Shown here: positions 5,252-49,739 of the stretch, piece after piece
How the letters are laid out: every line of letters starts with the position of its first letter
How positions within the stretch are numbered: the stretch's first letter is position 1
UHGV virus genome: UHGV-0343432
Reading direction: 5' to 3' (one strand)
DNA: 64,000 nucleotides
Source: a virus
Position numbers and translations under genes: made by a program
The notes under the pieces: generated by a model
The model's input: only the letters and a program-made list of their open reading frames with translations
Database searches by the model: none
Told to the model about the DNA's origin: nothing

Positions 5252-5692
5252 ATGGAAATTCCAAAGAACCTAAGATGGTATTATGACCAAGTAACAAACA
5301 ACCTTGACCAATTGAAAGCGTTGAAGTTGAAAGAGAAACAGATAAGGAAAGAGAAAGTGGGAGTTGAAGTTAAGTGTTGTAAATGTGGTAAGTCAGTAAA
5401 ACTGGTTTTCACAGTTGCTGAATGGGCAGCTTACCTATCTACTCAGAAAAAGTTGATTGAAGAGAAAGGGTTAGTGATGAGTAATGGAGATGTGGTAAGG
5501 ATGTTCAGATACAAGAACATGAGATTTTTGAAACACCTATTCCTTGAATGTTGTTCAGCCTGTTTACAAGAAGAGGAAAGGATACAGGTAGATGGTTTGA
5601 TGTCAGTTGAGAATAACATCAAACTAATTCTCGGAACCTATGAAAAAGGAAAAGAAGAATACGAGAGATCACCCCTTACAAGTTTATTGTAA
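5252..5692 (+). CDS. zinc-ribbon protein (CxxC...CxxC)
   Basis: VKCCKCGKSVKL ... LECCSACLQ; paralogous to next ORF. Confidence 0.4.
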   Translation: MEIPKNLRWYYDQVTNNLDQLKALKLKEKQIRKEKVGVEVKCCKCGKSVKLVFTVAEWAAYLSTQKKLIEEKGLVMSNGDVVRMFRYKNMRFLKHLFLECCSACLQEEERIQVDGLMSVENNIKLILGTYEKGKEEYERSPLTSLL

Positions 5693-5882
5693 AACTTGCG
5701 GTAAGTTGGTTGTAGAGGTAGAAGCTGATTGGTACCAGTTTAATTGGTATTACGCTCCCAAGGAGATTAGACCTCCATTAAGAGAACTGTTCCCTGGTAT
5801 AACTCATGAACAGTTTCTCGGTTTAAAATATAGGAAGTGCAGTGAATGTAGGAAACTTAAGAAACAAGGGATTTGCATTTAG
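5640..5882 (+). CDS. zinc-ribbon protein paralog
   Basis: YCKTCGKLVVEV ... KCSECRK; overlaps previous ORF by 53 nt in another frame. Confidence 0.35.
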   Translation: MKKEKKNTRDHPLQVYCKTCGKLVVEVEADWYQFNWYYAPKEIRPPLRELFPGITHEQFLGLKYRKCSECRKLKKQGICI

Positions 5883-5925
5883 TAATTTGGGATATTATAT
5901 TTGCATATAATTAAAATATAAAAAT

Positions 5926-6183
5926 ATGGTATTAAGAGCTTTACTAAAATTGTTTATCGTTATCCCAGTTTTATTCACAGTTAAGTGGTGGTACAGGGGG
6001 TTAAATTTATTCGTTTATATTGGTTGTGGTATTACATTCAGTTTTGCAAGGATTTCAAACAGGTTGGATTTGTTGGAGTATGGTTGGTTTAAAACGTTAA
6101 CCGAATGGGTGGGGTTCACGATTTACATGGGAGTTCATGTACTATGGATTTATTCAATCAGGGAATTAATAATTAAAATCTAA
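5926..6183 (+). CDS. small membrane protein
   Basis: two hydrophobic segments. Confidence 0.35.
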   Translation: MVLRALLKLFIVIPVLFTVKWWYRGLNLFVYIGCGITFSFARISNRLDLLEYGWFKTLTEWVGFTIYMGVHVLWIYSIRELIIKI

Positions 6184-6187
6184 AGAT

Positions 6188-6406
6188 ATGAGAAGAGTTA
6201 GTTATTTAGTATTATTGGTTTTGTCCATAGCTTTATGTAGCATACTATCCTCTTGTAATGAATGTCAAGGGAATAGGAGATTTATAGAGATACCAGCTAA
6301 GATAGAATTCATTAGCTGTAGTGGTATAACTTATGCTTATATAGTTCATTATGAAGGTAAAAAGTACATGATGAACACTAATGGTGGGATACTTGAAATT
6401 AAATAG
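6188..6406 (+). CDS. small secreted/lipoprotein-like protein
   Basis: MRRVSYLVLLVLSIALCSILSSC signal with lipobox-like Cys. Confidence 0.35.
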   Translation: MRRVSYLVLLVLSIALCSILSSCNECQGNRRFIEIPAKIEFISCSGITYAYIVHYEGKKYMMNTNGGILEIK

Positions 6407-6415
6407 ATAAGTGAT

Positions 6416-6724
6416 ATGGCAGATTCATTTGAAGAGAGAGTAAAAAGTATAGAGAAAAGGTTGAGAGATGGTGATAGAGTCATCTCTCACCAGAATAGGT
6501 TATACCAAGAGTTAGAAAGTGGTGATAGGTTAATGGCTAAAGATTTAATCATTAACGTTAATCCCTATGTTATCAACACTTTACTGGTTGATAAGGTTAC
6601 ACCCACTAACGCTTATGCAAGGGGGACCAAATACCCCACAACGTATGACCGAAAGAATTTTAGGCCCAGAAAGGAATATAGTGGGTTTAACAAGTATTAC
6701 GTAGTAAGAAAGATAGAAGAATGA
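6416..6724 (+). CDS. hypothetical protein
   Basis: ORF track; ATGA overlap with thyA. Confidence 0.35.
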   Translation: MADSFEERVKSIEKRLRDGDRVISHQNRLYQELESGDRLMAKDLIINVNPYVINTLLVDKVTPTNAYARGTKYPTTYDRKNFRPRKEYSGFNKYYVVRKIEE

Positions 6725-7758
6725 AAGAGTATTTAGATTTATTGAGAAAAGTTCACGACCAAGGTTCATACAGAGGCCCTGCTCGTGATGGTATGCCTAG
6801 TTCTCAGAACCTTTTCGGTGAGATGATTGAGATTGATCTTAGGAAAGGGTTTCCATTACTGACAACCAAGAAGATGGCTTGGAATGCAATAGTTACAGAG
6901 TTGTTATGGTTTTTGAGAGGAGAACCAAACCTTAGGTACCTGTGGAAGTATAACGTACATATCTGGGACCAAGATGCTTACAGGTTCTATAAAAGGAGGT
7001 CTGAACAAGCTGGTGTTAAGGATAGTTTAATATTGAGTTTTCCTGAGTGGTTGAAAAAGCTGGATAGGATGAGAAATGGAGCTTACTGGGAGAGAAATGG
7101 TGATTTTGATAAGATGACCTTCATGGGAGCTGTTTACCCGGTTCAATGGAGGGGTACTTTCATATTCGGTGCTCCAGCACACTCAGACCAAATCAATTAC
7201 ATGATTCAAAATATTAGGAATAATCCCCTAAGTAGATACCATATAGTTAGTGCCTGGAATCCCATGGATATTCAATTGAACCAGGATACTCCTATAATGG
7301 CTTTACCATGTTGTCACATGAGTCACCAAATCTTGGTTGACAATGATACAAAAGAGTTTGATATGCTCATGTACCAAAGGAGTGCAGATATATTCTTGGG
7401 GGTACCGTTTAACATAGCTAGTTATGCTTTGCTATGTAGATTCTATGGTATGATGACTGGATATAAACCTCGCTATCTCAAAATGATTTTTGGAAGCGTT
7501 GATTTATATGAGACTCATTTCTCTCAAGCAAGAATACAACTGAGTAGAGATCATAGGCCATTACCTAAAATAGAAATATATTTAGATGAAGGTAGGTTAT
7601 CTATACACCATGATATGGTAGAAAAGTATAACATAACTGGTAAAAGTGAGGATTTGACCAACATCATTAAGTGCCACAAACCTTCTGATTTCAGGTTAAT
7701 AGATTATGACCCACACCCTGTAATAAAAGGGAAGCTAGATACAGGTTTGGGGATCTAA
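6721..7758 (+). CDS. thyA: thymidylate synthase (ThyA family, with ~60-aa insertion)
   Basis: GFPLLTTKK, ELLWFLRGEPN, HIVSAWNP, MALPCCH (catalytic Cys), YQRSADIFLGVPFNIASYALL with Asn at the uracil-specifying position, DPHPVIKG. Confidence 0.8.
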   Translation: MKEYLDLLRKVHDQGSYRGPARDGMPSSQNLFGEMIEIDLRKGFPLLTTKKMAWNAIVTELLWFLRGEPNLRYLWKYNVHIWDQDAYRFYKRRSEQAGVKDSLILSFPEWLKKLDRMRNGAYWERNGDFDKMTFMGAVYPVQWRGTFIFGAPAHSDQINYMIQNIRNNPLSRYHIVSAWNPMDIQLNQDTPIMALPCCHMSHQILVDNDTKEFDMLMYQRSADIFLGVPFNIASYALLCRFYGMMTGYKPRYLKMIFGSVDLYETHFSQARIQLSRDHRPLPKIEIYLDEGRLSIHHDMVEKYNITGKSEDLTNIIKCHKPSDFRLIDYDPHPVIKGKLDTGLGI

Positions 7759-7843
7759 TTTAGTATGTTATAGAGACAATCGTTATTTTATACTGTATCA
7801 GTTAGAACAACACATTTTAAGTTCAATTCTTTTAAGAACAACA

Positions 7844-7880
7844 AAGGGGACCGTCGAGATGACAGACCCCTTCTTTTTTG
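7844..7880. terminator. bidirectional terminator between convergent genes
   Basis: AAGGGGACCGTC-gagat-GACAGACCCCTT imperfect stem followed by TTCTTTTTTG on plus strand, T-rich on minus strand. Confidence 0.45.
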
Positions 7881-7883
7881 TGA

Positions 7884-8324
7884 TTAAGATAATCTTTTCC
7901 ACCAACCGAAAGTCTCATACTGTCTTTGTAAGCTACATGGTTTATCCCACGTTTCTTGGATCCAGTATGCTTGTCTTTCGAACCCAACTTTCCTATAAGC
8001 TTTATCAACTCCTTCTTTAATAATCCAATACAACCACTCCACTAAGTAAATGATATAGTAAAGAGTGAATGGTACAAGGATTAATAACAACATCCACCAA
8101 CTCTGAATCTCAAAGGCGAATAGAATAAAAGTGACCAAGATTCCTATACCTAACCCAAGACCCACACAATCTTTGTATTGTTGGACATGACACCATTCAT
8201 GTCTTATACACCGCCCATTGAGTGAAGAGTGCTCAGTGATAACGAATCCGAATAACATCATGGTAGCAAATCCATTTAGAAAAGTAAGGACCTTAGCTAA
8301 ACCCGAGTTATAGTAAATCTTCAT
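7884..8324 (-). CDS. polytopic membrane protein with HExxH motif (putative metallopeptidase-like)
   Basis: RHEWCHVQQ followed by multiple TM helices. Confidence 0.4.
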   Translation of the reverse strand: MKIYYNSGLAKVLTFLNGFATMMLFGFVITEHSSLNGRCIRHEWCHVQQYKDCVGLGLGIGILVTFILFAFEIQSWWMLLLILVPFTLYYIIYLVEWLYWIIKEGVDKAYRKVGFERQAYWIQETWDKPCSLQRQYETFGWWKRLS

Positions 8325-8326
8325 AA

Positions 8327-8509
8327 CTATTGTTTTACGGGTTTGATGTACTTGTCATAGAACATCTTTGCCCACCAACCAACCACTACTCCTGCTGAGA
8401 ACGATACCAAAGCATTAATTGATACCCAGAAAGGAGCACACTTTACAAACACTAAAGCTACGATTACGATAGCTGCTACCACAACCCAAAATAAAATTTT
8501 CTTTTTCAT
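8327..8509 (-). CDS. small two-TM membrane protein (holin-like)
   Basis: 60 aa, two hydrophobic helices, charged C-terminus. Confidence 0.35.
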   Translation of the reverse strand: MKKKILFWVVVAAIVIVALVFVKCAPFWVSINALVSFSAGVVVGWWAKMFYDKYIKPVKQ

Positions 8510-8522
8510 GATAAGAATTTAT

Positions 8523-9869
8523 TTAGTTAACGAATGGATCTTCATTTGAGAATACCTGTACATTACCAATTACCCAACCAACTTGCTCACTCGGTTTTAA
8601 TATAGTGGCTACATTCACATAACTTACTACCACCTGATTTTTACCATCAACCTGACTTACTTTGTGAACTGGAAAATATAACTGATACTCAGTGTTACTG
8701 ATTTTAATTACCTGAGAACAATTCAAAGTATAAACTTGGCCACTTGAGTTAGCTGTTTTGGGATAAGTTAGAATGGTATTCCTAAGAACTTCTTCTAAAG
8801 TATACCCAGCTTGTGTTAGTATAGATATCCCACTAATAACTGTACCCCCAGAAGTACCTCTTTGACCAGCTCCAGTTACTGGATTACCATTTACCATAAA
8901 TATGGCTTGTATGGTTAATTTCCTTGAAAGGAGCATAGCACTACTCAATATTCTCCCTTGGTTTGCTGATAGTGGGGCTTGTTTATCAGATGAACCAAGG
9001 TGATCTACTACTATATTACCAGTTAAGACTGAGGTATTGTACCTTATTCCTCTCTCGACATACTCTAAACTCTTCTGATTGAAAGTAATGGATAAGTAAT
9101 ATGAGATACTGTTATAAACAACAGTTAATACTAATTCACCAGTTTCCCATGATTGAGGGTTATCTTTGAGGTTTGTGATAGTTATATTAACTGGTATATA
9201 TCCTCTTACATTATCTGAAGCCTTGATTAGGAATTGTGTTTCCCTTTTATTTAGTTCAGTAATCTCTTGTATAGTCCCAATCCTCTCATTAACAAAGACA
9301 GCCCAAGAAGCTACACTATCTTCCACCTCGTCATTGAACAGGTTATATAATGTATTTGGTAATACATGGACCTCACCACTACCTCCACCTATATCCGATA
9401 AGTAGGCTATTTGGTTTGCCTCTTCTCCAGTTTGACCAGCTTCTTGAACAGTTGGACGAACTCCCTTTGGAGTATTCAGGTTAATGGGTAATTCTGAAGT
9501 ACCCAGGTCAACCACATCCCACTCATTCACCATAGCAATGTTAACACTACCTAAACCCTCTTTCTTAGCCACTCCAGTGATGAGATCACCATTAGCCAAT
9601 TGAATGGCTTTACGATTTGGATGTTGTTCGTCCTTAGCTTCAACATATTTCACAACATCATCAGAGGTAGTGGCTATTTTACCGGTATCTTCGTACTCAC
9701 TAGTTTCGTTGTTATACACCCACCAATTGTCATTCTCTCCTATGATCGGAGATTTACCTGGTTGGCCTTTCACTATATTACCCATAGTGATTTGAGCAAA
9801 CACTCTCTCGTTTGTTACAACTGGGAAGAGATTGAGCTCTCCATTATATATTTCTAGCTTGCAAATCAT
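8523..9869 (-). CDS. hypothetical protein (possibly virion-associated)
   Basis: ORF track; 448 aa, no recognisable motif. Confidence 0.35.
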   Translation of the reverse strand: MICKLEIYNGELNLFPVVTNERVFAQITMGNIVKGQPGKSPIIGENDNWWVYNNETSEYEDTGKIATTSDDVVKYVEAKDEQHPNRKAIQLANGDLITGVAKKEGLGSVNIAMVNEWDVVDLGTSELPINLNTPKGVRPTVQEAGQTGEEANQIAYLSDIGGGSGEVHVLPNTLYNLFNDEVEDSVASWAVFVNERIGTIQEITELNKRETQFLIKASDNVRGYIPVNITITNLKDNPQSWETGELVLTVVYNSISYYLSITFNQKSLEYVERGIRYNTSVLTGNIVVDHLGSSDKQAPLSANQGRILSSAMLLSRKLTIQAIFMVNGNPVTGAGQRGTSGGTVISGISILTQAGYTLEEVLRNTILTYPKTANSSGQVYTLNCSQVIKISNTEYQLYFPVHKVSQVDGKNQVVVSYVNVATILKPSEQVGWVIGNVQVFSNEDPFVN

Positions 9870-34775: not shown

Positions 34776-35730
34776 CGTTCAGTAAGTCTTTAAGTAATTT
34801 CCTTCTTTTCTTTCTCTTTTCCCCGATGTAGTCAGAGTAATCGTCTATCATACCTGACCAATCGTTCATTTTAATCTCATTAGTTGCTTTCCCATCCCTA
34901 GACTTAGTCTTGACGACTTTTCTTTTAATGTAACAGTCAAAATTTTTTCCGGGATCACCTTCGTATCGAAATTCCGGGAGTTCTGCCTTATGAAACTCAA
35001 ACCCATGTTTACCCAGTACCCAATACCCCATATCTGTACCCATATCACATACTCTCATTTGCATGGGTGACCCACACATTAAAATATTTTTACGGAGGAG
35101 TTGTGGTTTATGGATATGTCCACATACTACGTAATCGAAATTCTGGAAGAAGGTGCTCAGTTTACTCTGGTCTCCTTTCCTTTCACATCTCATACCATTT
35201 GTGTCTTCAGCTCCAGCCAATTCTTTGTGAATCAGTAAAACTCTCGGTGCATCATGTTTACTTTGGGAGCATACTCTCATTGCATTCTCTAATCCTACAT
35301 CATCTCTGAGATAAGGTATACCGAATACTCTGCAACCATTTACTTCTACCACTGAAAAATCAATACACTTCATAAAATGGTATATCTCTGAAAAGGTTTT
35401 CACCCAACTTGGAGATTTTATTGGGTCATCACCATCCCTATCGTGATTACCTGAAATACAGTATACCATTTCTCCACAGATATGGTCTATCTCTGAAAAA
35501 GTTTGGTTCACTAACCTAAATAGCTCGTTAGATATGTGGCTTGGGTTATGAAAAAGGTCCCCAGCGATGAGGACCTTGTTACCATTTGAATGGGCTTTAA
35601 AAACCAACTCTTTAAACCATGTTAGGAGCATCTTTGTCCTGTACAAGTCTTGGTTGAAAGTATTCCAATCATGGATATGTAAATCACCAAGACAATAAAA
35701 CTTACCGGTAATCTTCATGGTTAAAATCAT
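34759..35730 (-). CDS. SbcD/Mre11-like nuclease (T4 gp47-like)
   Basis: calcineurin-like phosphoesterase motifs GDLHI, GDLFH, GNHD, GHIH. Confidence 0.75.
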   Translation of the reverse strand: MILTMKITGKFYCLGDLHIHDWNTFNQDLYRTKMLLTWFKELVFKAHSNGNKVLIAGDLFHNPSHISNELFRLVNQTFSEIDHICGEMVYCISGNHDRDGDDPIKSPSWVKTFSEIYHFMKCIDFSVVEVNGCRVFGIPYLRDDVGLENAMRVCSQSKHDAPRVLLIHKELAGAEDTNGMRCERKGDQSKLSTFFQNFDYVVCGHIHKPQLLRKNILMCGSPMQMRVCDMGTDMGYWVLGKHGFEFHKAELPEFRYEGDPGKNFDCYIKRKVVKTKSRDGKATNEIKMNDWSGMIDDYSDYIGEKRKKRRKLLKDLLNDAELS

Positions 35731-36439
35731 TGTAGGTTATATACTCGTATAATTCTGAGAACTCATCTCCCTCGAACCCTCCTATATTCTCAATAATTTG
35801 AGCCACTGCCTTAAATCTCTTCTTAAACTCGGAGATATGGATGGTAGCTTCTTTGATAATGTTCTTCCTACCCAGGAATCTTAAATTACCCCACTCGAAA
35901 GGGATATTTTGTTCATGGTAGTAATGTTTCACGTTCTCCATGAAATACCGGAAGTCAAACCCTTTGAATAACAGGTTGGATTTTATCTGATACCCTTCAT
36001 CTGCTATACGTTTACCATCATTCTCGGTTTCCCATGAGAATGGTCGTATTAACCTGATAAATACTACGTTGTAATTCTCCAAATCATGTTGTAGCATTTC
36101 TATGCAGGTTTTGTTATATTCTCTTTGTAGTTGGTAGGGTTTATTACCATCCATGTAATATATCAGGTTATCAATGATTGACCTATCTGTTACGAAATTA
36201 TCATTATCCCCTAATACTTTTCTCCTGTTCTCAAGTATAGCTAACTGATATTTATGGGCCCAATTATAATCCCCTAATAACTGGAGTGCGTGTTCATGGG
36301 ATTTTACTCCAAACTCATCCCACACATTACTCGCTGATGTATTTATATAGGGTAAACCCAATTCTTTGGATATCAGTTTAGCTAAGGTTGTTTTTCCTAG
36401 ACCTGATGCTCCGCTGAGATAAACTCTTAAATGTTTCAT
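35702..36439 (-). CDS. P-loop deoxynucleotide/nucleoside kinase (T4 gp1-like dNMP kinase candidate)
   Basis: LSGASGLGKTTLAKL Walker A; FVTDRS...DN motif typical of dNK/AAA_28 kinases; 245 aa. Confidence 0.5.
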   Translation of the reverse strand: MKHLRVYLSGASGLGKTTLAKLISKELGLPYINTSASNVWDEFGVKSHEHALQLLGDYNWAHKYQLAILENRRKVLGDNDNFVTDRSIIDNLIYYMDGNKPYQLQREYNKTCIEMLQHDLENYNVVFIRLIRPFSWETENDGKRIADEGYQIKSNLLFKGFDFRYFMENVKHYYHEQNIPFEWGNLRFLGRKNIIKEATIHISEFKKRFKAVAQIIENIGGFEGDEFSELYEYITYNDFNHEDYR

Positions 36440-41349: not shown

Positions 41350-41395
41350 TTATTGCAAATATAATATCCCATTATCTCCCATGCAATTCTCGAGT
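41350..41395 (-). promoter_or_regulatory. conserved early promoter copy 9 (upstream of ligase)
   Basis: minus strand GAATTGCATGGG...GGATATTATATTTGCAATAAAT. Confidence 0.5.
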
Positions 41396-44300
41396 TTCCT
41401 TATTTTCCCACCAGTATGGAGTGTAACATTCCTTGTATACTTCTGAGTAATCAGTACCCCTCTCATATCCCCTCAACTTTGACCATCTTAAACCCAACTC
41501 GAAATCAACTGCCATAGTAATACCTTTCAACTTAAACCCAAAGTATTTTTGAGTATCTGGGTCCCTACATATATCGAATAACTGGTCTACCACTTTGTCA
41601 TTCATATCTTTCGGGTCAAGATAGAACATAAGAGAGTCATGTATTGTCCCAATTTGCTCGATAGAAGATGGAAGTTCTCCCCTCATGATTTTCTCCCTAA
41701 TAAGTATACTAGAAAACAATGCGAAATCCGAAGCAGTTCCTTGGATAGGAGCATTTATGGCATCTCGTAACGCTTTTGCGTGTTTACCTCTATCTCTCTT
41801 ATTTTTAGCATCTGGTAACCTTCTTTTCCTACCAAACGGAGATAATACATATCCATGTTTCTCAGCAAACTTCATTTGTTTATTGACAAACCTTTTAACG
41901 CCCGGGAAAATCTCAAACCATTCTTCCAAGAACTCAAGAGCTTCTTCCTTCGTAGCTTTATGTTTATCGGTTGATAGGGATTCTTTCAAATGATTTGGTC
42001 CCTGTTGATACAAGATACCAAATCCAATTGTCTTGGCTTGTTTTCTCTTCACTTTCCACTCCTTGTAATTTGGGTCATCCTCGTTAGAGTAAATCTTATT
42101 TATCTCATCGTAATCCTCTCCATATTTCTTACAAGCAGTAGCCAAGTGTATGTCATGACCAACTCTAAACCATTCCAACATCTGCTTATCCTGAGACCAA
42201 CCTGCAACTACCCGGAACTCTGCTGCTGAATAGTCAAGCTGCATCATAACCTTTCCTGGAGGGCATACAAACATTTGCTTAATGTCACTTGCCGTAGTAT
42301 CTCGTGGCATATTCTGCAAGTTCGGATTCCGACTGCTAAGTCTCCCCGTGACCGTATTGCAACTCACATAATTAGAGCGAGTTACATAACTATGCTTATC
42401 ATTTACTGATAAATCCATGATGGTCTTCTTACCTATATACTCTACCCTAATCTTAGTTAAGTATATGTATTTCCATGATTCACCATTTATAACCCTTCTT
42501 ACTTGAGCTTGTGATATCCCATACTTTTCAACTATTTGCCCTTGTGTCAATCCCTCTCTATGGTCTAACAATATTTGTCCAACAGTTTGAGTATCCAATA
42601 CTGTCTTCCCATTGATAGCTCCGTTAGTAAATGCAGTTCTGGTATTCTTATAGGCACGTTTTGTATTCTCTGAGTAAGTGATACATTGTAAGTTCTCTGG
42701 GATATTATTTAGCGGGTTACAATCTATGTGGTCTATCACATACCCATCTGGTATACTGGCATTATTAAATGCTGACCATACTAACCTTGATACTGGTAAC
42801 ATCTTTTTTATCCCAGTGCCATTCCTTAACCCCACTCTACTATGTAACCTATTACCAGATTTCTGTACCCTAGGTACCATCTCATGTGGGTTGTTATAGT
42901 CTAACATACCTTGAGCACCTGGTATTTTTACTGAGAATATTTTACCTTCAGACGATGCTAAATAACCAGGCCAATTTGGGATTTCTTTAAATACCACTTC
43001 TCCATATTTCTTACCCACTTCTACAGGCTGTATATCTAACCTGGATACATCATGCATGATAACATCCAAGTCATATTTAGCTATCTTCCAAATGGGTTTA
43101 AAACCACGTGGAGTAAGTAATTTATGGTATTTCGTACACTCAAGAACATCTCCCCTATCTGTAGTTACCCTGTAAGTATCCAGTACTCCCTTGTTTATAG
43201 TATGAGTTACCTGTTCCCAAGTTCCAGCATGAGTTAATACATAGATATTATCTTTTACCACATCTTTTACCCCCACCTCTTTTGGAGCTATATCACCTAT
43301 AACTATATCCCTTTCTTTTCCTACCAAAACCGTATCCTCAGTTACGCAACCATGGATAAGGAATGAACCATGAAGAGTGTTATCTGGGTTAAGTACATCC
43401 CTTATACCTACAATATAAGTGGAGTATAACTTGGTCATCTCTCGATACTTTAACAGAGTATCTATAAACCCAGTCTCATCCTTCTCCCTTAACTCGAGTA
43501 ATACATCTTCACTCGTTGCTGGGTTATTGGTTGGTTTCTTGGTTTTCTTATCCTCTGTATACTTTATTATTGGTAGCTTCAACCCATACCTGTTATAATA
43601 TAAAAAGTCAATGAGTTGTTTCACTGACTTTAGATTTAGTGGTTCAAGGGTTTTCTGGTCACTCTTGGTTATACCAACTCCGGCTGAGTAATTATCATAC
43701 TTCTTTTGTAGGTTAGCGATACTCCTTTGCAAGCTGCTAGCTTTACGTTTATCTTCAGTCTCATCTAACTCGTTGGTCTTTATTTCAATTTGTTCTAGAA
43801 GGTTACCCAATAGAGCTTTTTTAGCAGCCTTTAGTCTCTTCTTATTATACTTAACGAGAGATGGTACTGAGTACATCTTCTTCTCAGCTTCCTCAATCTT
43901 TATTTTATAACTCTCCACTAACCCATCAAGGTATGGTCTATCAACCCAGTATCCCCTACTCTCAACTTCTGATAAGTTATATGAAGCCATCTCCAACAGG
44001 TTTCTATACAACTGGTAGAATCCCAGTTCTCTTACCCTACTCTCAAGGTATATAGCTAACCTAAGACAAAGGTCAGAGTCCAAAGCATTATAGGGTGCAA
44101 GTGTTTCAAGAGGTACGTTTGTCCAAAACTTAACCGTATCTTCTGGGGTCCTCTCTGTCTCCTCTCCCTTGATTGAGTAGTTTGCATACTCGGGAAAAAA
44201 CGAATAAGCCAGAGATTTCAAATCGTGTGGTCTCTGCTCATTCAATAGGTATTTTAATAACATGGTATCCAAGATAACTCCTCTCGGTTTTATACCATAT

Positions 44301-44641
44301 TTAAGCCACCAACCATGCTCGAATTTAAAGTTGTGTGCTACCTTAGTTATCCTATCATTCTGGATTAATTCCCTACCTATATACTTAAGGATCTTCAACC
44401 ACTTATTCCCCTTTTTATTTGGTGAATCTTTGTGGGCTAAAGGTATAACATAGGCATACCCAGGTTGAAAAGCTATAGATATACAAGTAGGGAACCCATT
44501 AGGATTTGAACTATGGTGACCAGATGTCTCATAGTCATGAGCACAATACCCAGTCACCTTGCAGTACTCGACAACTTTCTTCACATCAGCCATGGTAATG
44601 GCATAACTGAAGTGATAATTATCTAGTACCGACTTGTTCAT
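41372..44641 (-). CDS. family A DNA polymerase with 3'-5' exonuclease domain, interrupted by intein
   Basis: Exo I AHDYETSG; after intein TVTGRLSSRNPNLQNMP, motif A LDYSAAEFRVVA, DIHLATA, motif B KTIGFGILYQ, motif C TIHDSL. Confidence 0.8.
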   Translation of the reverse strand: MNKSVLDNYHFSYAITMADVKKVVEYCKVTGYCAHDYETSGHHSSNPNGFPTCISIAFQPGYAYVIPLAHKDSPNKKGNKWLKILKYIGRELIQNDRITKVAHNFKFEHGWWLKYGIKPRGVILDTMLLKYLLNEQRPHDLKSLAYSFFPEYANYSIKGEETERTPEDTVKFWTNVPLETLAPYNALDSDLCLRLAIYLESRVRELGFYQLYRNLLEMASYNLSEVESRGYWVDRPYLDGLVESYKIKIEEAEKKMYSVPSLVKYNKKRLKAAKKALLGNLLEQIEIKTNELDETEDKRKASSLQRSIANLQKKYDNYSAGVGITKSDQKTLEPLNLKSVKQLIDFLYYNRYGLKLPIIKYTEDKKTKKPTNNPATSEDVLLELREKDETGFIDTLLKYREMTKLYSTYIVGIRDVLNPDNTLHGSFLIHGCVTEDTVLVGKERDIVIGDIAPKEVGVKDVVKDNIYVLTHAGTWEQVTHTINKGVLDTYRVTTDRGDVLECTKYHKLLTPRGFKPIWKIAKYDLDVIMHDVSRLDIQPVEVGKKYGEVVFKEIPNWPGYLASSEGKIFSVKIPGAQGMLDYNNPHEMVPRVQKSGNRLHSRVGLRNGTGIKKMLPVSRLVWSAFNNASIPDGYVIDHIDCNPLNNIPENLQCITYSENTKRAYKNTRTAFTNGAINGKTVLDTQTVGQILLDHREGLTQGQIVEKYGISQAQVRRVINGESWKYIYLTKIRVEYIGKKTIMDLSVNDKHSYVTRSNYVSCNTVTGRLSSRNPNLQNMPRDTTASDIKQMFVCPPGKVMMQLDYSAAEFRVVAGWSQDKQMLEWFRVGHDIHLATACKKYGEDYDEINKIYSNEDDPNYKEWKVKRKQAKTIGFGILYQQGPNHLKESLSTDKHKATKEEALEFLEEWFEIFPGVKRFVNKQMKFAEKHGYVLSPFGRKRRLPDAKNKRDRGKHAKALRDAINAPIQGTASDFALFSSILIREKIMRGELPSSIEQIGTIHDSLMFYLDPKDMNDKVVDQLFDICRDPDTQKYFGFKLKGITMAVDFELGLRWSKLRGYERGTDYSEVYKECYTPYWWENKETRELHGR
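42356..43348 (-). mobile_element. intein (331 aa) with HNH_3 endonuclease and C-terminal HTH in DNA polymerase
   Basis: starts CVTEDTVLV after LHGSFLIHG; block B VLTHAGTWEQVTHTINKGV nearly identical to TerL intein; HNH RLVWSAFNNASIPDGYVIDHIDCNPLNNIPENLQCITYSENTKRA; ends ...YVSCN followed by +1 Thr of TVTGRLSS. Confidence 0.55.
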
Positions 44642-45404
44642 CTCTTATACAATTTTTAAGTATGTTCCAATCTTTCCTGTACGAGTGGAGAGATGCAATG
44701 TTATGGTATAAGTAACCCTGTTTGAGTTCTCTTAAACCTTTTGACCTGAGTACTTCTCGTATGTACTCTTTCAGTTGCCAAGCTAACCATACATCATTCC
44801 CGAAATGAGTTACTACATCGGCTGAACGTTGGTTGTATATCAGGTGTACCTGTTGGTTACGGATAATTACCTGATAATACATGGAGCAAGGTACTCTCTT
44901 CCTTCCACCTATATATGCTCCATCCTTCTCCAAATCCCATACAGGAATAATTCCCTGACGAGTATCAGGGTTTCTGAGTAACTCATTGATGACTCTCTGT
45001 AAATTACCAATGGCATCTTCTGACTCATCACCTGGACAGAAGTTCAATCTCTCCCCATAGGCGTAATCAAACTTACCATTTACCAAGAACTCTTCCCAAA
45101 TCTCTTTTCGGATTTTCCAAGCTTCACCAGGATTTAAACCTTTCGGGTCAACTCTCTCGTTAAACTCTGCAATAGCCCATTTCTTTGTTGACTCGATAGC
45201 AGTCTGGGTACCATTGAATAGATACTCTTCCTGGCCCAATGTCAATAGGCAATACGAGTAATTTAATATCTCCTTTGTCTCATAGTTAATGTCCCCCTCG
45301 ATATTCTTGTTTTGCATGGATTTGGGAGTAACTATAGCACTCATCTCGTAGACATCCCTCCTTACCTCTGACATCAATTCATAACAGTCGTCAAATACTC
45401 TCAT
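44619..45404 (-). CDS. divergent thymidylate-synthase-fold protein (candidate deoxypyrimidine hydroxymethylase)
   Basis: RKRVPCSMYYQ (Cys nucleophile region) ... YNQRSADVVTHFGND; acidic residue at the position aligning to ThyA Asn177. Confidence 0.5.
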   Translation of the reverse strand: MRVFDDCYELMSEVRRDVYEMSAIVTPKSMQNKNIEGDINYETKEILNYSYCLLTLGQEEYLFNGTQTAIESTKKWAIAEFNERVDPKGLNPGEAWKIRKEIWEEFLVNGKFDYAYGERLNFCPGDESEDAIGNLQRVINELLRNPDTRQGIIPVWDLEKDGAYIGGRKRVPCSMYYQVIIRNQQVHLIYNQRSADVVTHFGNDVWLAWQLKEYIREVLRSKGLRELKQGYLYHNIASLHSYRKDWNILKNCIRDEQVGTR

Positions 45405-45936
45405 TTACATTTTGTTTTAGTGTTCTTAAATATCTTTCATTTTCCCTAATTTTCTTATAGGTTTTCTTTACACACCCACTTGATACTCCCCAATCCCTAG
45501 CTATCTGAGCCATACTTATACCTTGTTTTACTAATTCTGGTATCATCAGCCTCTGTTTATCTGATAACCTTGATACCTTACTCTTCTCCCCAAACTTATT
45601 ATATCCCGGGTGTTCTTCTCCAAATACTTTCTTCTCAAGTCCTAATTTATAAGCATGAGTAGTATTCTGAGAATACGTTACCCATTCAAGGTTAGTGGAT
45701 ACATTATTTTTCTTATTACCATCCTTGTGATTTACACAAGGATAATTATTGGGATTAGGTATAAATGCTAAGGCAACTAACCTATGAACAAATACCCTTA
45801 CTTTACCCTTAAAACTAACACGTAGATATCCACATGAATTTTCTTTAGGTACCATCAACTCCCCCTTATCCTTATTAAATACTTTACCAGTATCTGATAT
45901 CTCTAAGTTAGGATATTTGTCCAAGGTTCTCCACAT
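45391..45936 (-). CDS. HNH homing endonuclease (NUMOD4 + HNH_3 + C-terminal HTH)
   Basis: YPNLEISDTGKV; HRLVALAFIPNPNNYPCVNHKDGNKKNNVSTNLEWVTYSQN; C-terminal ISMAQIARDWGVS HTH. Confidence 0.7.
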   Translation of the reverse strand: MWRTLDKYPNLEISDTGKVFNKDKGELMVPKENSCGYLRVSFKGKVRVFVHRLVALAFIPNPNNYPCVNHKDGNKKNNVSTNLEWVTYSQNTTHAYKLGLEKKVFGEEHPGYNKFGEKSKVSRLSDKQRLMIPELVKQGISMAQIARDWGVSSGCVKKTYKKIRENERYLRTLKQNVNESI

Positions 45937-45939
45937 GGC

Positions 45940-46284
45940 TTACTCCTCCACTTTTTCGATTGTCCCCCAAACATCAATGTCAGAGATAAGTTTAAAAGCT
46001 TTAGCTTCCTTTACCTCTTCATTAACCCTTGTCTTCATTTTCAGGTTCATCTCGCAACCTGAGAAGTGAGAGAAGATAACTGTATCACCGATGTTGTAAT
46101 CAGTTACAGCATCTCCTTTTCTCACTACCTCTCCAATAACTGGTTTACCATCTTGAGTATTACCCGGGATAATGATACCAGATTTTAATTTCTCATCTCC
46201 CCCGATAACCTCTACAAGGAGCTTACTCGCTCCCACCTTTGTAATGTTTACATTGTCTCTGATTAATGAAATTTTCTTTTCCAT
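45940..46284 (-). CDS. GroES-like co-chaperonin (Cpn10/T4 gp31-like)
   Basis: 114 aa; KSGIIIPGNTQDGKPVIGEVVRKG...IGDTVIFSHFSGCE resembles GroES mobile loop and beta-barrel pattern. Confidence 0.45.
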   Translation of the reverse strand: MEKKISLIRDNVNITKVGASKLLVEVIGGDEKLKSGIIIPGNTQDGKPVIGEVVRKGDAVTDYNIGDTVIFSHFSGCEMNLKMKTRVNEEVKEAKAFKLISDIDVWGTIEKVEE

Positions 46285-46332
46285 ATCTTTAGTATTAATT
46301 TTAATTGAATAGTACTCAACATGTTAGTGGGT

Positions 46333-47145
46333 TTATTGACCTGGTAGTTTGCAATCCTTAGCAAGTGTTTTCAATTTTGCTTTAAAACCAATGAACCCAT
46401 CCTTAGCTATTAACTGCCTACATATCCTTATATGGACCTTATATTTCAGGCTCTCTGCATAATCGGGGTCAGAGAATTTTTCTAATAGCTCCAACATTTT
46501 TTTGGTTACGTCATTCTCTTTCCCTTTCAATAGCTTATGGAGATCTTTGTGGATATGATATCCAGTTAATAACTCGATAGATGACCACATATTCCCACAG
46601 AATAAAGTAACTGCCAGGTCTACTCCCTCTCCATAGATATACTCACCCATTCTCTGGATAAGTAAGAAGTCAAATATCAACCTCTTGGTTACTTCTGATG
46701 ACCTGATGTTAACGACCATCCTTCTAGTATCATCCTTGTGTCTCCTTTGGAATACCACTGAAAGTAAGCAACCTTTTCCCGAGTCATGTTGGTTAGTGAA
46801 CTTATAGGCTATATTATATGAACCAGCATTAGCCCTTTCTTTTGCCTGTATTTGAGATTTTACAAGGTCAAGTTGATTAAGGCTAAGGTAGTTCGCTATA
46901 AGACGGGTCCATTTTTGCAAGTGGTACCCGAAGAGTTTTGCAAAATCAAATTCAGGGTCTATCCAAGCCTTGTTAATATCTATCACCACATTGTATGCAA
47001 TGAGTTGGGATGATACCCTTATCCCACTTTCCGGTAGTTTATCTGCGTTTAGGAAAAGATACTCATTGATCTTTTCCCAAGCGTGTTGTGTTGTAGGTGC
47101 TGTTAAATAAATCATATTAATATTTTGAGCGGATCCTAAACTCAT
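46333..47145 (-). CDS. second divergent ThyA-fold candidate (possible dCMP-hydroxymethylase-like)
   Basis: GKGCLLSVVFQRR...NIRSSEV...LIFDFLLIQ aligns with ThyA CHxxFQFYV...YQRSxD...PFNIASYAL with Asp replacing Asn177. Confidence 0.35.
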   Translation of the reverse strand: MSLGSAQNINMIYLTAPTTQHAWEKINEYLFLNADKLPESGIRVSSQLIAYNVVIDINKAWIDPEFDFAKLFGYHLQKWTRLIANYLSLNQLDLVKSQIQAKERANAGSYNIAYKFTNQHDSGKGCLLSVVFQRRHKDDTRRMVVNIRSSEVTKRLIFDFLLIQRMGEYIYGEGVDLAVTLFCGNMWSSIELLTGYHIHKDLHKLLKGKENDVTKKMLELLEKFSDPDYAESLKYKVHIRICRQLIAKDGFIGFKAKLKTLAKDCKLPGQ

Positions 47146-47902
47146 TTATCTTGTTCTTCTTATAGTAGATATGGTAAATGCTTCTTGCTGTCATACCCAC
47201 GAATGCAAAGAACCCAAACATGAACAAGGTACCCTCCATAAGTTTTACCCTGTAAGTTACCTCGTCTGTCATCATCTGAGTTTGTTTCCAGGGTTTATTC
47301 TTCAAGCAATTCCTTGCTATCTGGAATTTGTAGGTTGATCTCCACAATAGTTGGCACATCTTTTGGTCTCTCTCGATACCCAGTTGATTACCACCTCTCA
47401 TGAACTCATCAGTGATTGGTCCATTAATTACCTTGTACCCAGGACAATATACCTTTCCTAGTACTGCCTTCGCCATCTGAGCACCCCTTCTCAATAACAG
47501 GTCAAGAGTATCATCTTCTGGTTCTGCCTCACAATATTTCCGGATATCTTCTTCCTCTATACCCGAGTAAATCAATAACTCAAGCCAGAAGTGAAGAGCA
47601 TCTGCACATTCTTCATTGAAGTTCTGAAGGAATGGCATCATGTTTGAACGGCTATCCCCTTTTGAGAACATCTCCATCAGCTCATCGTAGGACTCATACC
47701 CCTCTCCCAGTTCCTCAATCACTCTTCCCACAAAATCCTTGATTAGGGATTGAGATACTTTTAAATTCACATTTACCGGGTACTGTGGTAGACCCTCTAT
47801 CTTGATATAAGAATCAAGCAACACTTTCTGTAACCGATACATCTCAGTTAACCCTTTTCCCAGTGGGTAAACCACTTCTTCTTTTATGTCCCTTATGTCC
47901 AT
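47117..47902 (-). CDS. all-alpha NTP pyrophosphohydrolase (MazG/dimeric dUTPase-like; dCTPase candidate)
   Basis: EExxE-type motifs RVIEELGEGYESYDE and EECADALHFWLEL. Confidence 0.4.
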   Translation of the reverse strand: MDIRDIKEEVVYPLGKGLTEMYRLQKVLLDSYIKIEGLPQYPVNVNLKVSQSLIKDFVGRVIEELGEGYESYDELMEMFSKGDSRSNMMPFLQNFNEECADALHFWLELLIYSGIEEEDIRKYCEAEPEDDTLDLLLRRGAQMAKAVLGKVYCPGYKVINGPITDEFMRGGNQLGIERDQKMCQLLWRSTYKFQIARNCLKNKPWKQTQMMTDEVTYRVKLMEGTLFMFGFFAFVGMTARSIYHIYYKKNKINEFRIRSKY

Positions 47903-48320: not shown

Positions 48321-49739
48321 CTATAATAGTTTTCCCTTGTAATCTTCAATTACATTGAGCCCCTCATCCTTGTAATATTTAAGCCTGTGTTTTGAATGTC
48401 TTTTCAGGTAAGTTCCTTCATCAAAGAAGTCATCAAAGTAGGTTACTTTCTTAGATTCATGAGAACGAAGAGCCCTACCCAGTAACTGGAGTGCCTGTAT
48501 AGCTGAGTCTCCAGATGCTAGGTTTTGCATATATTGGATTAAGGGCATATTCTGGCCAACCTTAATGATGAGTGACGCTATGAGAATATTGGTCTCACCT
48601 CTCTTGAACCTATCAAGCTTCTCTTTCCTGTCAGATACGTTGTGATGTATATACTCTATCTTTAGATAAGGGAATTCTTTCTTATACCTTTCGTATGTTT
48701 CCTCTACCTGAGCTATATACTTACATACTACCAAGATAGGTATATGTCCTTCTCTCACGTGATATTTAGCAGCATCTATAGCCCTGTCTAACCTTTCCAC
48801 TCCATAGGTGATAGCAGCATCAAATTCTGATTTATAGTCAGAAGCTCCAACTGGTTTGGTATTCCCCTTTCTCATCGTAATAATGATGTTAGAAGATACT
48901 CCCATCTCCACTAATTCCTTGTTCTTTATCACGAACGTTTCCTGCCCAAAGAAAGATTCGACAGTGATGTTCTTTACCTTATCCTTGTGTCTTAATGCAG
49001 TACCACTCAAACCAACTCTAATGGGGATTAGGTATAGCTTATTTAATACCTTTCTAGCGGTTTTACTCGTAGCAAGATGACATTCATCATATATGAGTAC
49101 ATTGTATTGACTTAGATACTTCCAATAATTCTCTATATTTCTCACCAGAGTGGGCAACATACATACCATGATGTCACCCCATTGAACTTCTTTCCCCTGC
49201 ATATAACCCCAACTATCAAACATATCTGGTAAGTCATCCTTGAATTGGTTATATAGCTCGGTACCATTCACGATAACTAAGGATTTAGCCTTATACACTG
49301 AAGCATGGATTAGCCCAGCTATTAAAGTTTTCCCAGCATTCGTTGCTGCTCCCACTATACCTCTCGGGAATGGTACTCCCCCACATGAGTTTTTAAGTAT
49401 ACTCCATGCTGCCTTTCTCTGGTAAGGTCTTCTCTTCAAATCTCCAATATGAACTGGCATAGCTTGGATTTGTGGTAGATTCCTGTTATCCTCTATATCA
49501 TAGGGTACTCCATGATTCTCAATCCACTCTATCACTCTGGGTAATAGGCCAGTCTCACAATAACCCCTATCACTTACCATGTGTACTAAACCATCCCAAC
49601 CATGTGGCATACTCGCTCTCATGTAAAAAGCTTGTGGGTGCCGGAAGGATAACTCCTTATAAAGTTTTTGGAGGACTTTTATATCCCCCTCCACTTTAAA
49701 CTTATTGTTATTCAGTTTGATTGTTACCATTTGTCCCAC
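48321..49739 (-). CDS. SF2 DNA helicase (UvsW/DEAH-like)
   Basis: Walker A GAATNAGKT, DEAH box IYDECH, helicase C-terminal domain. Confidence 0.65.
   Translation of the reverse strand: MGQMVTIKLNNNKFKVEGDIKVLQKLYKELSFRHPQAFYMRASMPHGWDGLVHMVSDRGYCETGLLPRVIEWIENHGVPYDIEDNRNLPQIQAMPVHIGDLKRRPYQRKAAWSILKNSCGGVPFPRGIVGAATNAGKTLIAGLIHASVYKAKSLVIVNGTELYNQFKDDLPDMFDSWGYMQGKEVQWGDIMVCMLPTLVRNIENYWKYLSQYNVLIYDECHLATSKTARKVLNKLYLIPIRVGLSGTALRHKDKVKNITVESFFGQETFVIKNKELVEMGVSSNIIITMRKGNTKPVGASDYKSEFDAAITYGVERLDRAIDAAKYHVREGHIPILVVCKYIAQVEETYERYKKEFPYLKIEYIHHNVSDRKEKLDRFKRGETNILIASLIIKVGQNMPLIQYMQNLASGDSAIQALQLLGRALRSHESKKVTYFDDFFDEGTYLKRHSKHRLKYYKDEGLNVIEDYKGKLL

Follow-up and report, generated by a model that had tools for sequence, protein, structure and literature searches.

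A Pfam-less ThyA-fold family paired with a tail-less ThyA clade in a widespread phage cassette, a candidate system for cytosine-nucleotide modification

What would a phage do with three genes of the thymidylate synthase (ThyA) fold? The question is raised by UHGV virus genome UHGV-0343432, of which we analysed a stretch of 64,000 nucleotides (hereafter the window), 64 kb of an uncultured tailed phage with a GC content of ~38% and nearly all genes on the minus strand. An earlier reading of these letters alone (the sequence-only reading) had noted one canonical ThyA, two divergent ThyA-fold paralogs, here called ORF1 and ORF2 (ORF, open reading frame), a nucleotide pyrophosphatase (ORF3), a nucleotide kinase and a DNA cytosine-C5 methyltransferase (C5-MTase), and had proposed a genome with non-canonical bases. 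We found all six genes on the strands described, and the count of three ThyA-fold genes holds. Next to the gene of the family A DNA polymerase (PolA), ORF3, ORF2 and ORF1 make up a cassette of fixed gene order, in a linkage that is both tight and ancient. We consider it rather likely that this region (44619-47902), together with the kinase, is a pre-replicative cassette for the modification of cytosine nucleotides that follows the logic of phage T4 and carries an extra ThyA-fold enzyme. Candidate products, as far as the sequences point to them, are 5-hydroxymethylcytosine (5hmC), 5-methylcytosine (5mC) or something new. Whether a phage escapes a given restriction, CRISPR or other defence system depends on the modifications of its DNA, which have also been a source of enzymes for epigenome sequencing.

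The linkage was examined in 84 loci recovered through ORF2. A homologue of ORF3 is found immediately upstream of ORF2 in 81 of these loci and a homologue of ORF1 immediately downstream in 82, the two exceptions being a locus truncated by the contig end and L031, a 9.7-kb IMG/VR contig. The surplus of genes over what the T4 5hmC pathway needs, which the sequence-only reading had pointed out, is thus real and conserved, with the ORF2 family nearly always adjoining an ORF1-type gene. In the place of ORF1, L031 carries an ORF of 191 amino acids (3331-3906) followed by a dCMP deaminase and PolA; this ORF was considered as a degenerate ThyA keeping the Arg-Gln motif and rejected, with a profile alignment of 0.1 bits.

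The recurring gene order is helicase, kinase, all-alpha pyrophosphatase, ORF2-like gene, ThyA homologue, sometimes a deoxycytidine (dC) deaminase, and PolA. We found the same order in unrelated phages, namely C. perfringens P21, Mycobacterium JacoRen57 and Muddy, Gordonia Yakult, Streptomyces KimJongPhill, Serratia Serbin and Yersinia P744, and in the metagenomic loci L085 and L087. All lineages examined have PolA after the cassette, and a dC or dCMP deaminase lies between the ORF1-type gene and PolA in L002, L031, L085, Yakult, KimJongPhill, Serbin and P744. A profile from which those sequences had been left out recognised the intervening gene, annotated as 'hypothetical protein', as ORF2-like (E values 5e-50 to 6e-7). 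Furthermore, tblastn with two such proteins retrieved ORF2-like genes from 85 actinophage records, 68 of them Gordonia, and from 18 proteobacterial phage records (Serratia, Pseudomonas, Stutzerimonas, Yersinia, Brevundimonas and others). ORF1 itself, used as the query, matched 70 Gordonia records, and nine further C. perfringens phage records match both ORF1 and ORF3. The regions fetched from T4, RB69 and PaMx74, phages with Asp177 enzymes of other ThyA types, contain no ORF2-like gene, so that in this small sample (ten lineages versus three) the ORF1-type clade and ORF2-like genes co-occur.

Two of these loci have particular arrangements. In Muddy (L097, NC_022054), the genes gp44-gp50 comprise a helicase (gp50), a 'thymidylate kinase' (gp49), a 'dUTPase' (gp48), a hypothetical protein (gp47), a 'thymidylate synthase' (gp46) and PolA (gp44), and gp47 is 62% identical over its full length (tblastn) to the ORF2-like gp44 of JacoRen57. 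L085 has a RepB-type primase, a UDG-PolA fusion and two ORF2-like paralogues (264 and 266 amino acids; 5596-6390 and 8001-8801) flanking a single ORF1-type ThyA of 217 amino acids and a dCMP deaminase.

ORF2 itself has no match in sequence searches of Pfam, NCBIfam and the PDB, the ThyA family PF00303 included. Searching Pfam with 17 other members of its family gave nothing above the curated cut-offs, and phmmer and a 47-sequence profile against the PDB returned chance matches only. A structure predicted from the 47-sequence alignment (pLDDT 91.8, pTM 0.90) has strong neighbours exclusively among ThyA-superfamily proteins: the flavin-dependent dCMP monooxygenase 9IQC (score 16.9), the CMP hydroxymethylase MilA (12.6), three bacterial ThyAs (about 11) and T4 dCMP hydroxymethylase (10.5), with the next unrelated fold at 5.8. 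The order of strand, hairpin and helix in the model is that of ThyA. According to this prediction, ORF2 has the three-dimensional fold of ThyA. The gene is present as the sequence-only reading had it, with one correction: the start at 47145 is not kept, as the homologues begin at Met11, which gives 46333-47115 and places the ATG one base past the stop codon of ORF3.

Among 1.84 billion representative proteins, searched exhaustively with a profile, the ORF2 family amounts to 202 clusters. A conservation alignment was made from ORF2 and 102 full-length representatives (103 sequences), and its profile aligns weakly (<=14 bits) to the ThyA homologues of Gordonia, Streptomyces and Serratia phages, to RB69 gp48 and to ORF1. 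Throughout these alignments the register is constant: Cys116 falls on Cys146 of ThyA (E. coli numbering here and below), Arg138 on Arg166, Glu141 on Asp169, Arg145 on the Gly173 position and Asp149 on Asn177. Cys116 and Arg138 align with the Cys and Arg166 of the Yakult, KimJongPhill and Serbin ThyA homologues, and a comparison of the ORF2 and ORF1 families by hhalign failed globally and gave a weak local match (E value 0.02) in the same register. These residues, together with Tyr76, are the key residues of ORF2, with the codons of Cys116 at 46768-46770 and of Asp149 at 46669-46671. Tyr76 is present in 103 of 103 sequences, Cys116, Arg138, Asp149 and Lys68 each in 102, Tyr64 in 101, Glu141 in 97 and Arg145 in 92; the actinophage members have Tyr at the position of Glu141. 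When nine very divergent ORF2-like proteins are considered, only Tyr76, Cys116, Arg138 and Asp149 are invariant.

The sequence-only reading had stated that both divergent paralogs have Asp or an acidic residue in place of Asn177, and this is borne out by aligned Asp204 in ORF1 and by Asp149 in the same register in ORF2; the catalytic Cys is likewise present in both (Cys173 and Cys116, respectively). ORF2 has no equivalent of the Arg126/Arg127 pair, the corresponding strand (ThyA 126-132) starting with S-Y-N and containing no conserved Arg. In the ORF2 model the segment from the first sheet strands to strand ii is ~50 residues long versus ~90 in ThyA, and ORF2 has Arg at the Gly173 position, which is close to C5. 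The shortened region and this Arg suggest a co-substrate that is different or anionic. We infer that ORF2 is a catalytically competent ThyA-fold enzyme for a cytosine nucleotide, predicted to act at C5/C6. No natural ORF2-ThyA fusion was found among the longer family members (P0293, P0267 and others), and the sole database label on ORF2-like genes other than 'hypothetical' is 'pyrimidine hmase synthase', in two records.

ORF1 belongs to the ThyA superfamily by its match to PF00303 (E value 2.4e-13, which exceeds the gathering score) and by its equivalents of the catalytic residues. Of the solved structures, T4 dCMP hydroxymethylase matches it best in sequence (E value 3.3e-10), with bacterial thymidylate synthases at 1e-5 to 1e-3 in the same search. 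In the alignment, Cys173 corresponds to Cys146, Asp196 to Asp169 and Asp204 to Asn177 (Asp179 of T4), and the positions of L143 and G173 are occupied by Arg170 and His200. Cys173, Arg193-Ser194, Asp196 and Tyr116, the equivalents of Cys146, Arg166-Ser167, Asp169 and Tyr94, are invariant in 45 homologues. ORF1 retains Trp80, Tyr94 and Asp169, which contact folate and substrate in ThyA, as well as Arg126, and has Gln at position 127.

An alignment of E. coli ThyA, T4 gp42, PaMx74 thyA, the window ThyA and seven cassette ThyA homologues showed one pattern common to every cassette enzyme. Position 143 is Arg in the cassette enzymes (Asp in gp42, Asn in PaMx74, Leu in E. coli) and Arg170 is invariant in the ORF1 clade; position 173 is His, with Gly in the three others; and position 177 is Asp, as in gp42 and PaMx74, with Asn in E. 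coli. Asp169 is shared by the cassette enzymes, gp42, PaMx74 thyA and E. coli ThyA. At position 127 the cassette enzymes have Gln (Lys in L002, Arg in L087) and the three reference enzymes Arg. Past Tyr209, 9-20 residues remain in the cassette enzymes (20 in ORF1), compared with 29 in gp42, 62 in PaMx74 and 56 in E. coli. Collectively, these aligned residues define the ORF1-type enzymes as a separate ThyA clade with Arg143, His173 and Asp177 and without the ThyA C-terminal tail.

Published residue rules assign N177D to a dCMP substrate, L143D/E to a hydroxymethyl product and D169N to a 5-hydroxy product (PMC13326640). Under these rules ORF1 is cytosine-directed, because it has Asp at the N177 position. 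The acidic residue at the L143 position that has been proposed to mark hydroxymethylases is found neither in ORF1 (Arg170) nor in ORF2 (Gly113), and by this signature ORF1 does not qualify as the hydroxymethylase that the sequence-only reading had in mind. D169N, the signature of the 5-hydroxy-dCMP synthases, is absent as well (Asp196 in ORF1, Glu141 in ORF2). Finally, the missing tail and the lack of a dihydrofolate reductase (DHFR) among the window ORFs scanned set ORF1 apart from the 5-methyl-dCMP synthases, of which the PaMx74 enzyme has a full-length C-terminus and a DHFR nearby. Judged by sequence signatures, the ORF1-type enzymes match none of the three characterised dCMP-modifying types.

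Next to this pair, ORF3 matches PF08761 (dUTPase_2) with 28.4 bits (cut-off 22.9) and PHROGs 12184/173, 'nucleotide pyrophosphohydrolase', and has no sequence match among solved structures. Its family profile matches residues 123-171 of T4 gp56, the C-terminal 49 residues, with 27.6 bits, and both proteins end on a common motif, ...Y-x-x-K-N-x-x-N-x-x-R-x-x-x-Y. The likeness to T4 gp56 that had been proposed for this MazG/dimeric-dUTPase-like pyrophosphatase is thereby supported, and ORF3 is a gp56-like candidate dCTPase/dUTPase. For the kinase, the P-loop assignment stands (AAA_28, E value 3e-9, and weak dNK in Pfam; PHROG 2107, 'thymidylate kinase', E value 8e-15), and the proposed likeness to T4 gp1 finds no support: tblastn against 50,697 phage records gave 13 weak matches, none of them in T4-like phages. 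A homologue lies within 10 kb in 58 of the 84 loci. Only generic P-loop families were matched. We regard the protein as a candidate kinase for (modified) deoxynucleoside monophosphates.

The third ThyA-fold gene scores 241.6 bits against PF00303. Aligned to L. casei thymidylate synthase over M-A-L-P-C-C-H and QRSADIFLGVPFN, it keeps Leu143, Cys146, Asp169 and Asn177, in agreement with the Asn described earlier at the uracil-specifying position, and its C-terminus is of full length, a few residues beyond that of E. coli. The protein is long (345 amino acids) with inserted segments, and has odd substitutions: Tyr for Arg127, and G-S-V-D-L-Y for G-D-x-H-L-Y (Asp205 to Ser, His207 to Asp).

From the folds, family memberships, conserved residues and synteny described above, we infer the following substrates, products and order of steps, which would end in modified virion DNA. 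ORF3 would hydrolyse dCTP (and dUTP) to the monophosphate, thereby depleting the canonical dCTP pool and supplying dCMP. With dCMP as substrate, ORF1 would attack at C6 and attach to C5 a one-carbon unit donated by methylene-tetrahydrofolate. In thymidylate synthase the C-terminal tail closes the ternary complex and is needed for hydride transfer, and its deletion abolishes reductive methylation. Because ORF1 is without this tail, its likeliest product would be 5-hydroxymethyl-dCMP, by hydration rather than reduction, in preference to 5-methyl-dCMP. ORF2, which is nearly always encoded beside an ORF1-type gene, would for this reason either transform the ORF1 product further at C5 or serve as the partner subunit of ORF1. 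Phosphorylation of the product to the triphosphate would fall to the P-loop kinase and the host nucleoside diphosphate kinase, and incorporation of the modified nucleotide to its presumed consumer, the family A polymerase encoded alongside; the canonical ThyA would supply dTMP independently. In line with a cytosine substrate, contigs whose cytosine is modified show an enrichment of Asp177 ThyA homologues (PMC8670742).

Several observations weigh against this pathway. At the L143 position, where Asp/Glu is the proposed hydroxymethylase marker (PMC13326640), ORF1 carries Arg, which makes the assignment of a hydroxymethyl product weak. ORF2 is without the phosphate-binding pair Arg126/Arg127 of ThyA, so that a mononucleotide substrate is not assured, and we found no experimental study of ORF2-like genes or of cassette members in the literature searched. 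The C5-MTase-like protein matches PF00145 above the cut-off (53.8 bits, E value 2.7e-14), with recognisable motifs I, VI (ENL), VIII and IX and with P-D-C-G instead of P-C-Q in motif IV, and has a homologue in the gut phage MT121964 (36% identical, annotated cytosine MTase). Such a conserved gene would be pointless if every C bore a C5 substituent; it implies that some C5 positions are unsubstituted or that the protein has another role, and any link to the cassette would be conjectural. Furthermore, the window contains 70 GATC sites versus 258 expected under a Markov model (observed/expected 0.27, z ~ -12), with other 4-mer palindromes near expectation and CCGG and TGCA over-represented. This suggests selection by a GATC-specific host system, and hence that the DNA is still exposed to some restriction; as fully restriction-resistant DNA would not need to avoid GATC, the depletion tempers the idea of hypermodification. 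A decorating transferase is also lacking: 33 further window ORFs matched no Pfam family and include no glycosyl, aminoacyl or carbamoyl transferase, TET-like enzyme or DHFR, and ten of them matched in PHROGs only primase, tail and baseplate proteins and a transcription antiterminator. The hypermodified bases envisaged by the sequence-only reading thus fit poorly, at least in a bulky and complete form, with the C5-MTase-like gene and with GATC avoidance, and the glycosyl or aminoacyl transferases that it had suggested looking for are not among these ORFs by Pfam. Finally, neighbourhoods that combine an Asp177 ThyA homologue with a dC deaminase and PolA have been reported to yield 5-methyl-dCMP, in five of seven homologues tested, with the deaminase supplying dTTP (bioRxiv 10.1101/2024.12.05.627091); the tested homologues may or may not be of the ORF1 type. 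The window has no deaminase in its cassette, and has the canonical ThyA instead.

This same neighbourhood, reported for 5mC phages and present in the seven deaminase-bearing relatives listed above, makes a 5mC outcome a serious rival to 5hmC, if a rather unlikely one. Here ORF1, alone or with ORF2, would make 5-methyl-dCMP as in Xp12 and PaMx74, 5mC would replace C, and in the deaminase-bearing relatives part of the 5-methyl-dC nucleotide pool would be deaminated towards dTTP. 5mC does not block GATC enzymes of the MboI/DpnII type, so that even a 5mC phage would gain from avoiding GATC. Against it, the ORF1-type enzymes are without the tail on which reductive methylation depends, the PaMx74 enzyme with its tail of 62 residues sits beside a DHFR and has no ORF2-like neighbour, the window ORFs scanned contain no DHFR, thymidylate is provided for by a canonical ThyA with no deaminase in the cassette, and a C5-MTase would be redundant. 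It is improbable, in our view, that the genes serve nucleotide-pool metabolism only, as unusual thymidylate or deoxyuridylate enzymes and a plain dUTPase with no DNA modification at all. Database labels do read thymidylate synthase, dUTPase and thymidylate kinase, and carriers such as Muddy are in routine laboratory use, the literature searched containing no report of modified DNA; for C. perfringens phages, Yersinia P744, Serratia Serbin and Muddy we found no statement on base composition. This explanation is opposed by the Asp at the N177 position of both families, which specifies cytosine and not uracil, by the canonical ThyA already in the window, and by the statistical tie of Asp177 ThyA homologues to modified-cytosine contigs (PMC8670742).

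The remaining alternatives concern how ORF2 acts. ORF1 and ORF2 could be the two subunits of one heterodimeric ThyA-fold enzyme that replaces the usual homodimer and makes a single kind of product, which on the sequences we regard as possible without favouring it. The dimer interface of ThyA runs through the active sites, the pair Arg126/Arg127 is without counterpart in ORF2 and is represented in ORF1 by Arg126 with Gln at 127, and the adjacency of the two genes is near-obligate over very distant phage lineages. Furthermore, the ORF2-like stop codon overlaps the ThyA start or lies <=2 bases before it in six of seven annotated cultured-phage cassettes (P744, JacoRen57, Yakult, KimJongPhill, Serbin and Muddy), which suggests translational coupling; the gap is 43 bases in P21, and the metagenomic L002 has an overlap. 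Set against a heterodimer are the full catalytic set (Cys, Arg166, Asp177 and Tyr) in both proteins, which a structural partner would not need, the GroES-like gene that lies near the pair in the window and in 25 other loci, mostly between the two genes, and the presence in L085 of two ORF2-like paralogues with one ThyA. That ORF2 is instead a flavin-dependent dCMP 5-hydroxylase of the HY126 AfhB or RB69 gp48 type, providing 5-hydroxy-dCMP as a handle for glycosylation, appears highly improbable. The ORF2 profile does score best on RB69 gp48 among six ThyA-family sequences, weakly at 13 bits. However, the D169N of this type (PMC13326640) is absent, with Glu in 97 of 103 ORF2 sequences and Tyr in the actinophage members, and the reaction needs O2, with the family being abundant in human-gut and C. 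perfringens phages, whose hosts are anaerobes; these two points together make the role unlikely, and no sugar-activation or glycosyltransferase gene is found among the window ORFs scanned.

Tentatively, and as one possibility among those above, ORF2-like proteins and tail-less Arg143/His173/Asp177 ThyA homologues may constitute an unrecognised two-component ThyA-fold system, working as a heterodimer or in sequence. In the sequential form, ORF1 would make 5-hydroxymethyl-dCMP, and ORF2 would re-activate it by Cys addition at C6, with the hydroxyl replaced or reduced. The product would be an undescribed cytosine derivative, or the system would provide a DHFR-independent route to 5-methyl-dC/dT nucleotides.

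The window is most closely matched by IMG/VR contigs 82-86 kb in length and by three records from human faecal samples, all uncultured; no near-identical DNA match for the cassette region was found among phage genomes, and no tRNA in the 64 kb. The features discussed are collected in Table 1. The cassette is part of a replication module that spans 30-54 kb of the window and contains a DnaB-like helicase, primase, ligase, a gp32-like protein, a RecA/UvsX-like protein and a 5'-3' exonuclease, together with the P-loop kinase, PolA, Mre11/Rad50-like proteins and a PD-(D/E)XK nuclease.

Table 1. Coordinates of the cassette genes and of related or neighbouring features in the window.
Feature	Coordinates	Strand	Evidence or remark
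DNA cytosine-C5 methyltransferase-like protein	2994-4037	-	PF00145
Canonical thymidylate synthase	6721-7758	+	PF00303, 241.6 bits
P-loop nucleotide-kinase-like protein	35702-36439	-	Pfam AAA_28, weak dNK; PHROG 2107
Family A DNA polymerase (PolA)	41372-44641	-	Pfam DNA_pol_A in two stretches
ORF1, ThyA-family, shortened C-terminus	44619-45404	-	PF00303
Free-standing HNH homing endonuclease	45391-45936	-	Pfam HNH_3 and NUMOD4; PHROG 59, E value 2e-44
GroES/Cpn10-like small protein	45940-46284	-	Pfam Cpn10, E value 3e-7
ORF2, Pfam-less ThyA-fold family	46333-47115	-	Predicted fold and conserved residues
ORF3, all-alpha (dimeric-dUTPase/MazG-like) NTP pyrophosphatase	47117-47902	-	PF08761; PHROG 12184/173
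Lys-rich protein, 132 amino acids	47906-48304	-	PHROG 13400, of unknown function
Superfamily-2 (SF2) helicase	48321-49739		Part of replication module

Two genes separate ORF2 from ORF1 in the window; the GroES-like gene probably stands outside the modification pathway, and the homing endonuclease does not belong to it. A homologue of the GroES-like gene is present in 26 of the 84 loci, mostly but not always between ORF2 and ORF1, which abut directly in loci without it. The HNH/NUMOD4 endonuclease is probably a recent mobile insertion, because the near-identical loci L005 and L007 (proteins 96-99% identical), in which ORF1 begins a few to ~40 bases past the GroES-like gene, have no space for it. 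PolA (1089 amino acids) is interrupted by ~300 residues with HNH_3 and helix-turn-helix domains; the inserted stretch begins with Cys after ...SFLIHG and ends with ...VSCN before TVTGRLSS, and it is missing from the polymerases of relatives (726-747 amino acids). By its sequence, this insertion resembles an intein that carries a homing endonuclease of the HNH type. In the distant relative L002 (ENA contig k141_946662), an intein with a LAGLIDADG endonuclease is carried by the SF2/UvsW-like helicase upstream of the cassette (6097-8826), so that invasion of the intein type concerns the helicase there and the polymerase in the window. On the other side of the cassette, the Lys-rich protein between the SF2 helicase and ORF3 has a Cys cluster (C-x12-C-x2-C-x5-C) and no Pfam family beside its PHROG match, and is kept at that position in 78 of 84 loci.

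It is already known that cytosine can be replaced at the nucleotide level through the joint action of a dCTPase, a ThyA homologue and a kinase. What we have not found described in the literature searched is the Pfam-less ThyA-fold family, its near-obligate pairing with the tail-less Arg143/His173/Asp177 clade, and the breadth of the cassette. Earlier surveys of modification pathways were based on Pfam domains (MetaGPA, PMC8670742; bioRxiv 10.1101/2024.12.05.627091), and the ORF2-type partner is invisible to them because it has no Pfam model. The family is present in the genomes of >100 phages already in culture, the therapeutic mycobacteriophage Muddy among them, and on several hundred contigs from metagenomes. 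If the two-component system is true, it would be at work in hundreds of phages, among them Muddy, phages of C. perfringens and phages that are abundant in the human gut. Should the pair turn out to make a new base or to use a new cofactor, this would be a fourth chemistry of the ThyA superfamily, after methylation, hydroxymethylation and hydroxylation.

Compared with known systems, the cassette shares features with several of them. MilA, from mildiomycin biosynthesis, has the ThyA fold and the cytosine-specific Asp; it differs in belonging to bacterial secondary metabolism, in its ribonucleotide substrate, in having Asp at the L143 position and in having no paired second ThyA-fold protein. The 5-hydroxy-dCMP synthases (HY126 AfhB, PDB 9IQU/9IQC; RB69 gp48; DLP3 gp80) act on dCMP and structurally come closest to the ORF2 model; they share with ORF2 a compact ThyA fold, the catalytic Cys and an Asp where ThyA has N177. 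In contrast, sequence identity to ORF2 is ~14%, their D169N is replaced by Glu in ORF2 and Asp in ORF1, ORF2 has a distinct helical C-terminal extension, the ORF2 family is common in phages of anaerobes, and its neighbourhood contains no arabinose or glycosyl genes. The 5-methyl-dCMP synthases of Xanthomonas phage Xp12 and Pseudomonas phage PaMx74, known together with 5mC-selective deaminases, have in common with the cassette an Asp177 ThyA homologue beside an NTP pyrophosphohydrolase, and many relatives of the window continue likewise with a dC deaminase and PolA. Unlike ORF1, the PaMx74 enzyme is of full length, with Asn at L143 and Gly at G173, and it adjoins a DHFR and no ORF2-like partner.

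With the T4 5hmC pathway (gp56, gp42, gp1 and td), there are differences in the enzymes themselves, gp42 having Asp, Gly and Arg where ORF1 has Arg, His and Gln (L143, G173 and R127), and in the kinase, which is not a detectable gp1 homologue. No glucosyltransferase was found in the window ORFs scanned, and ORF2, which is nearly always in the cassette, has no counterpart in the T4 region examined. The likeness lies in the overall plan: both have an all-alpha pyrophosphatase of the gp56 kind and, from the ThyA family, an enzyme that retains the catalytic Cys, carries Asp in place of N177 and is shortened at its C-terminus; both have a nucleotide kinase along with a canonical ThyA encoded separately, and in both the genes are placed within the replication module.

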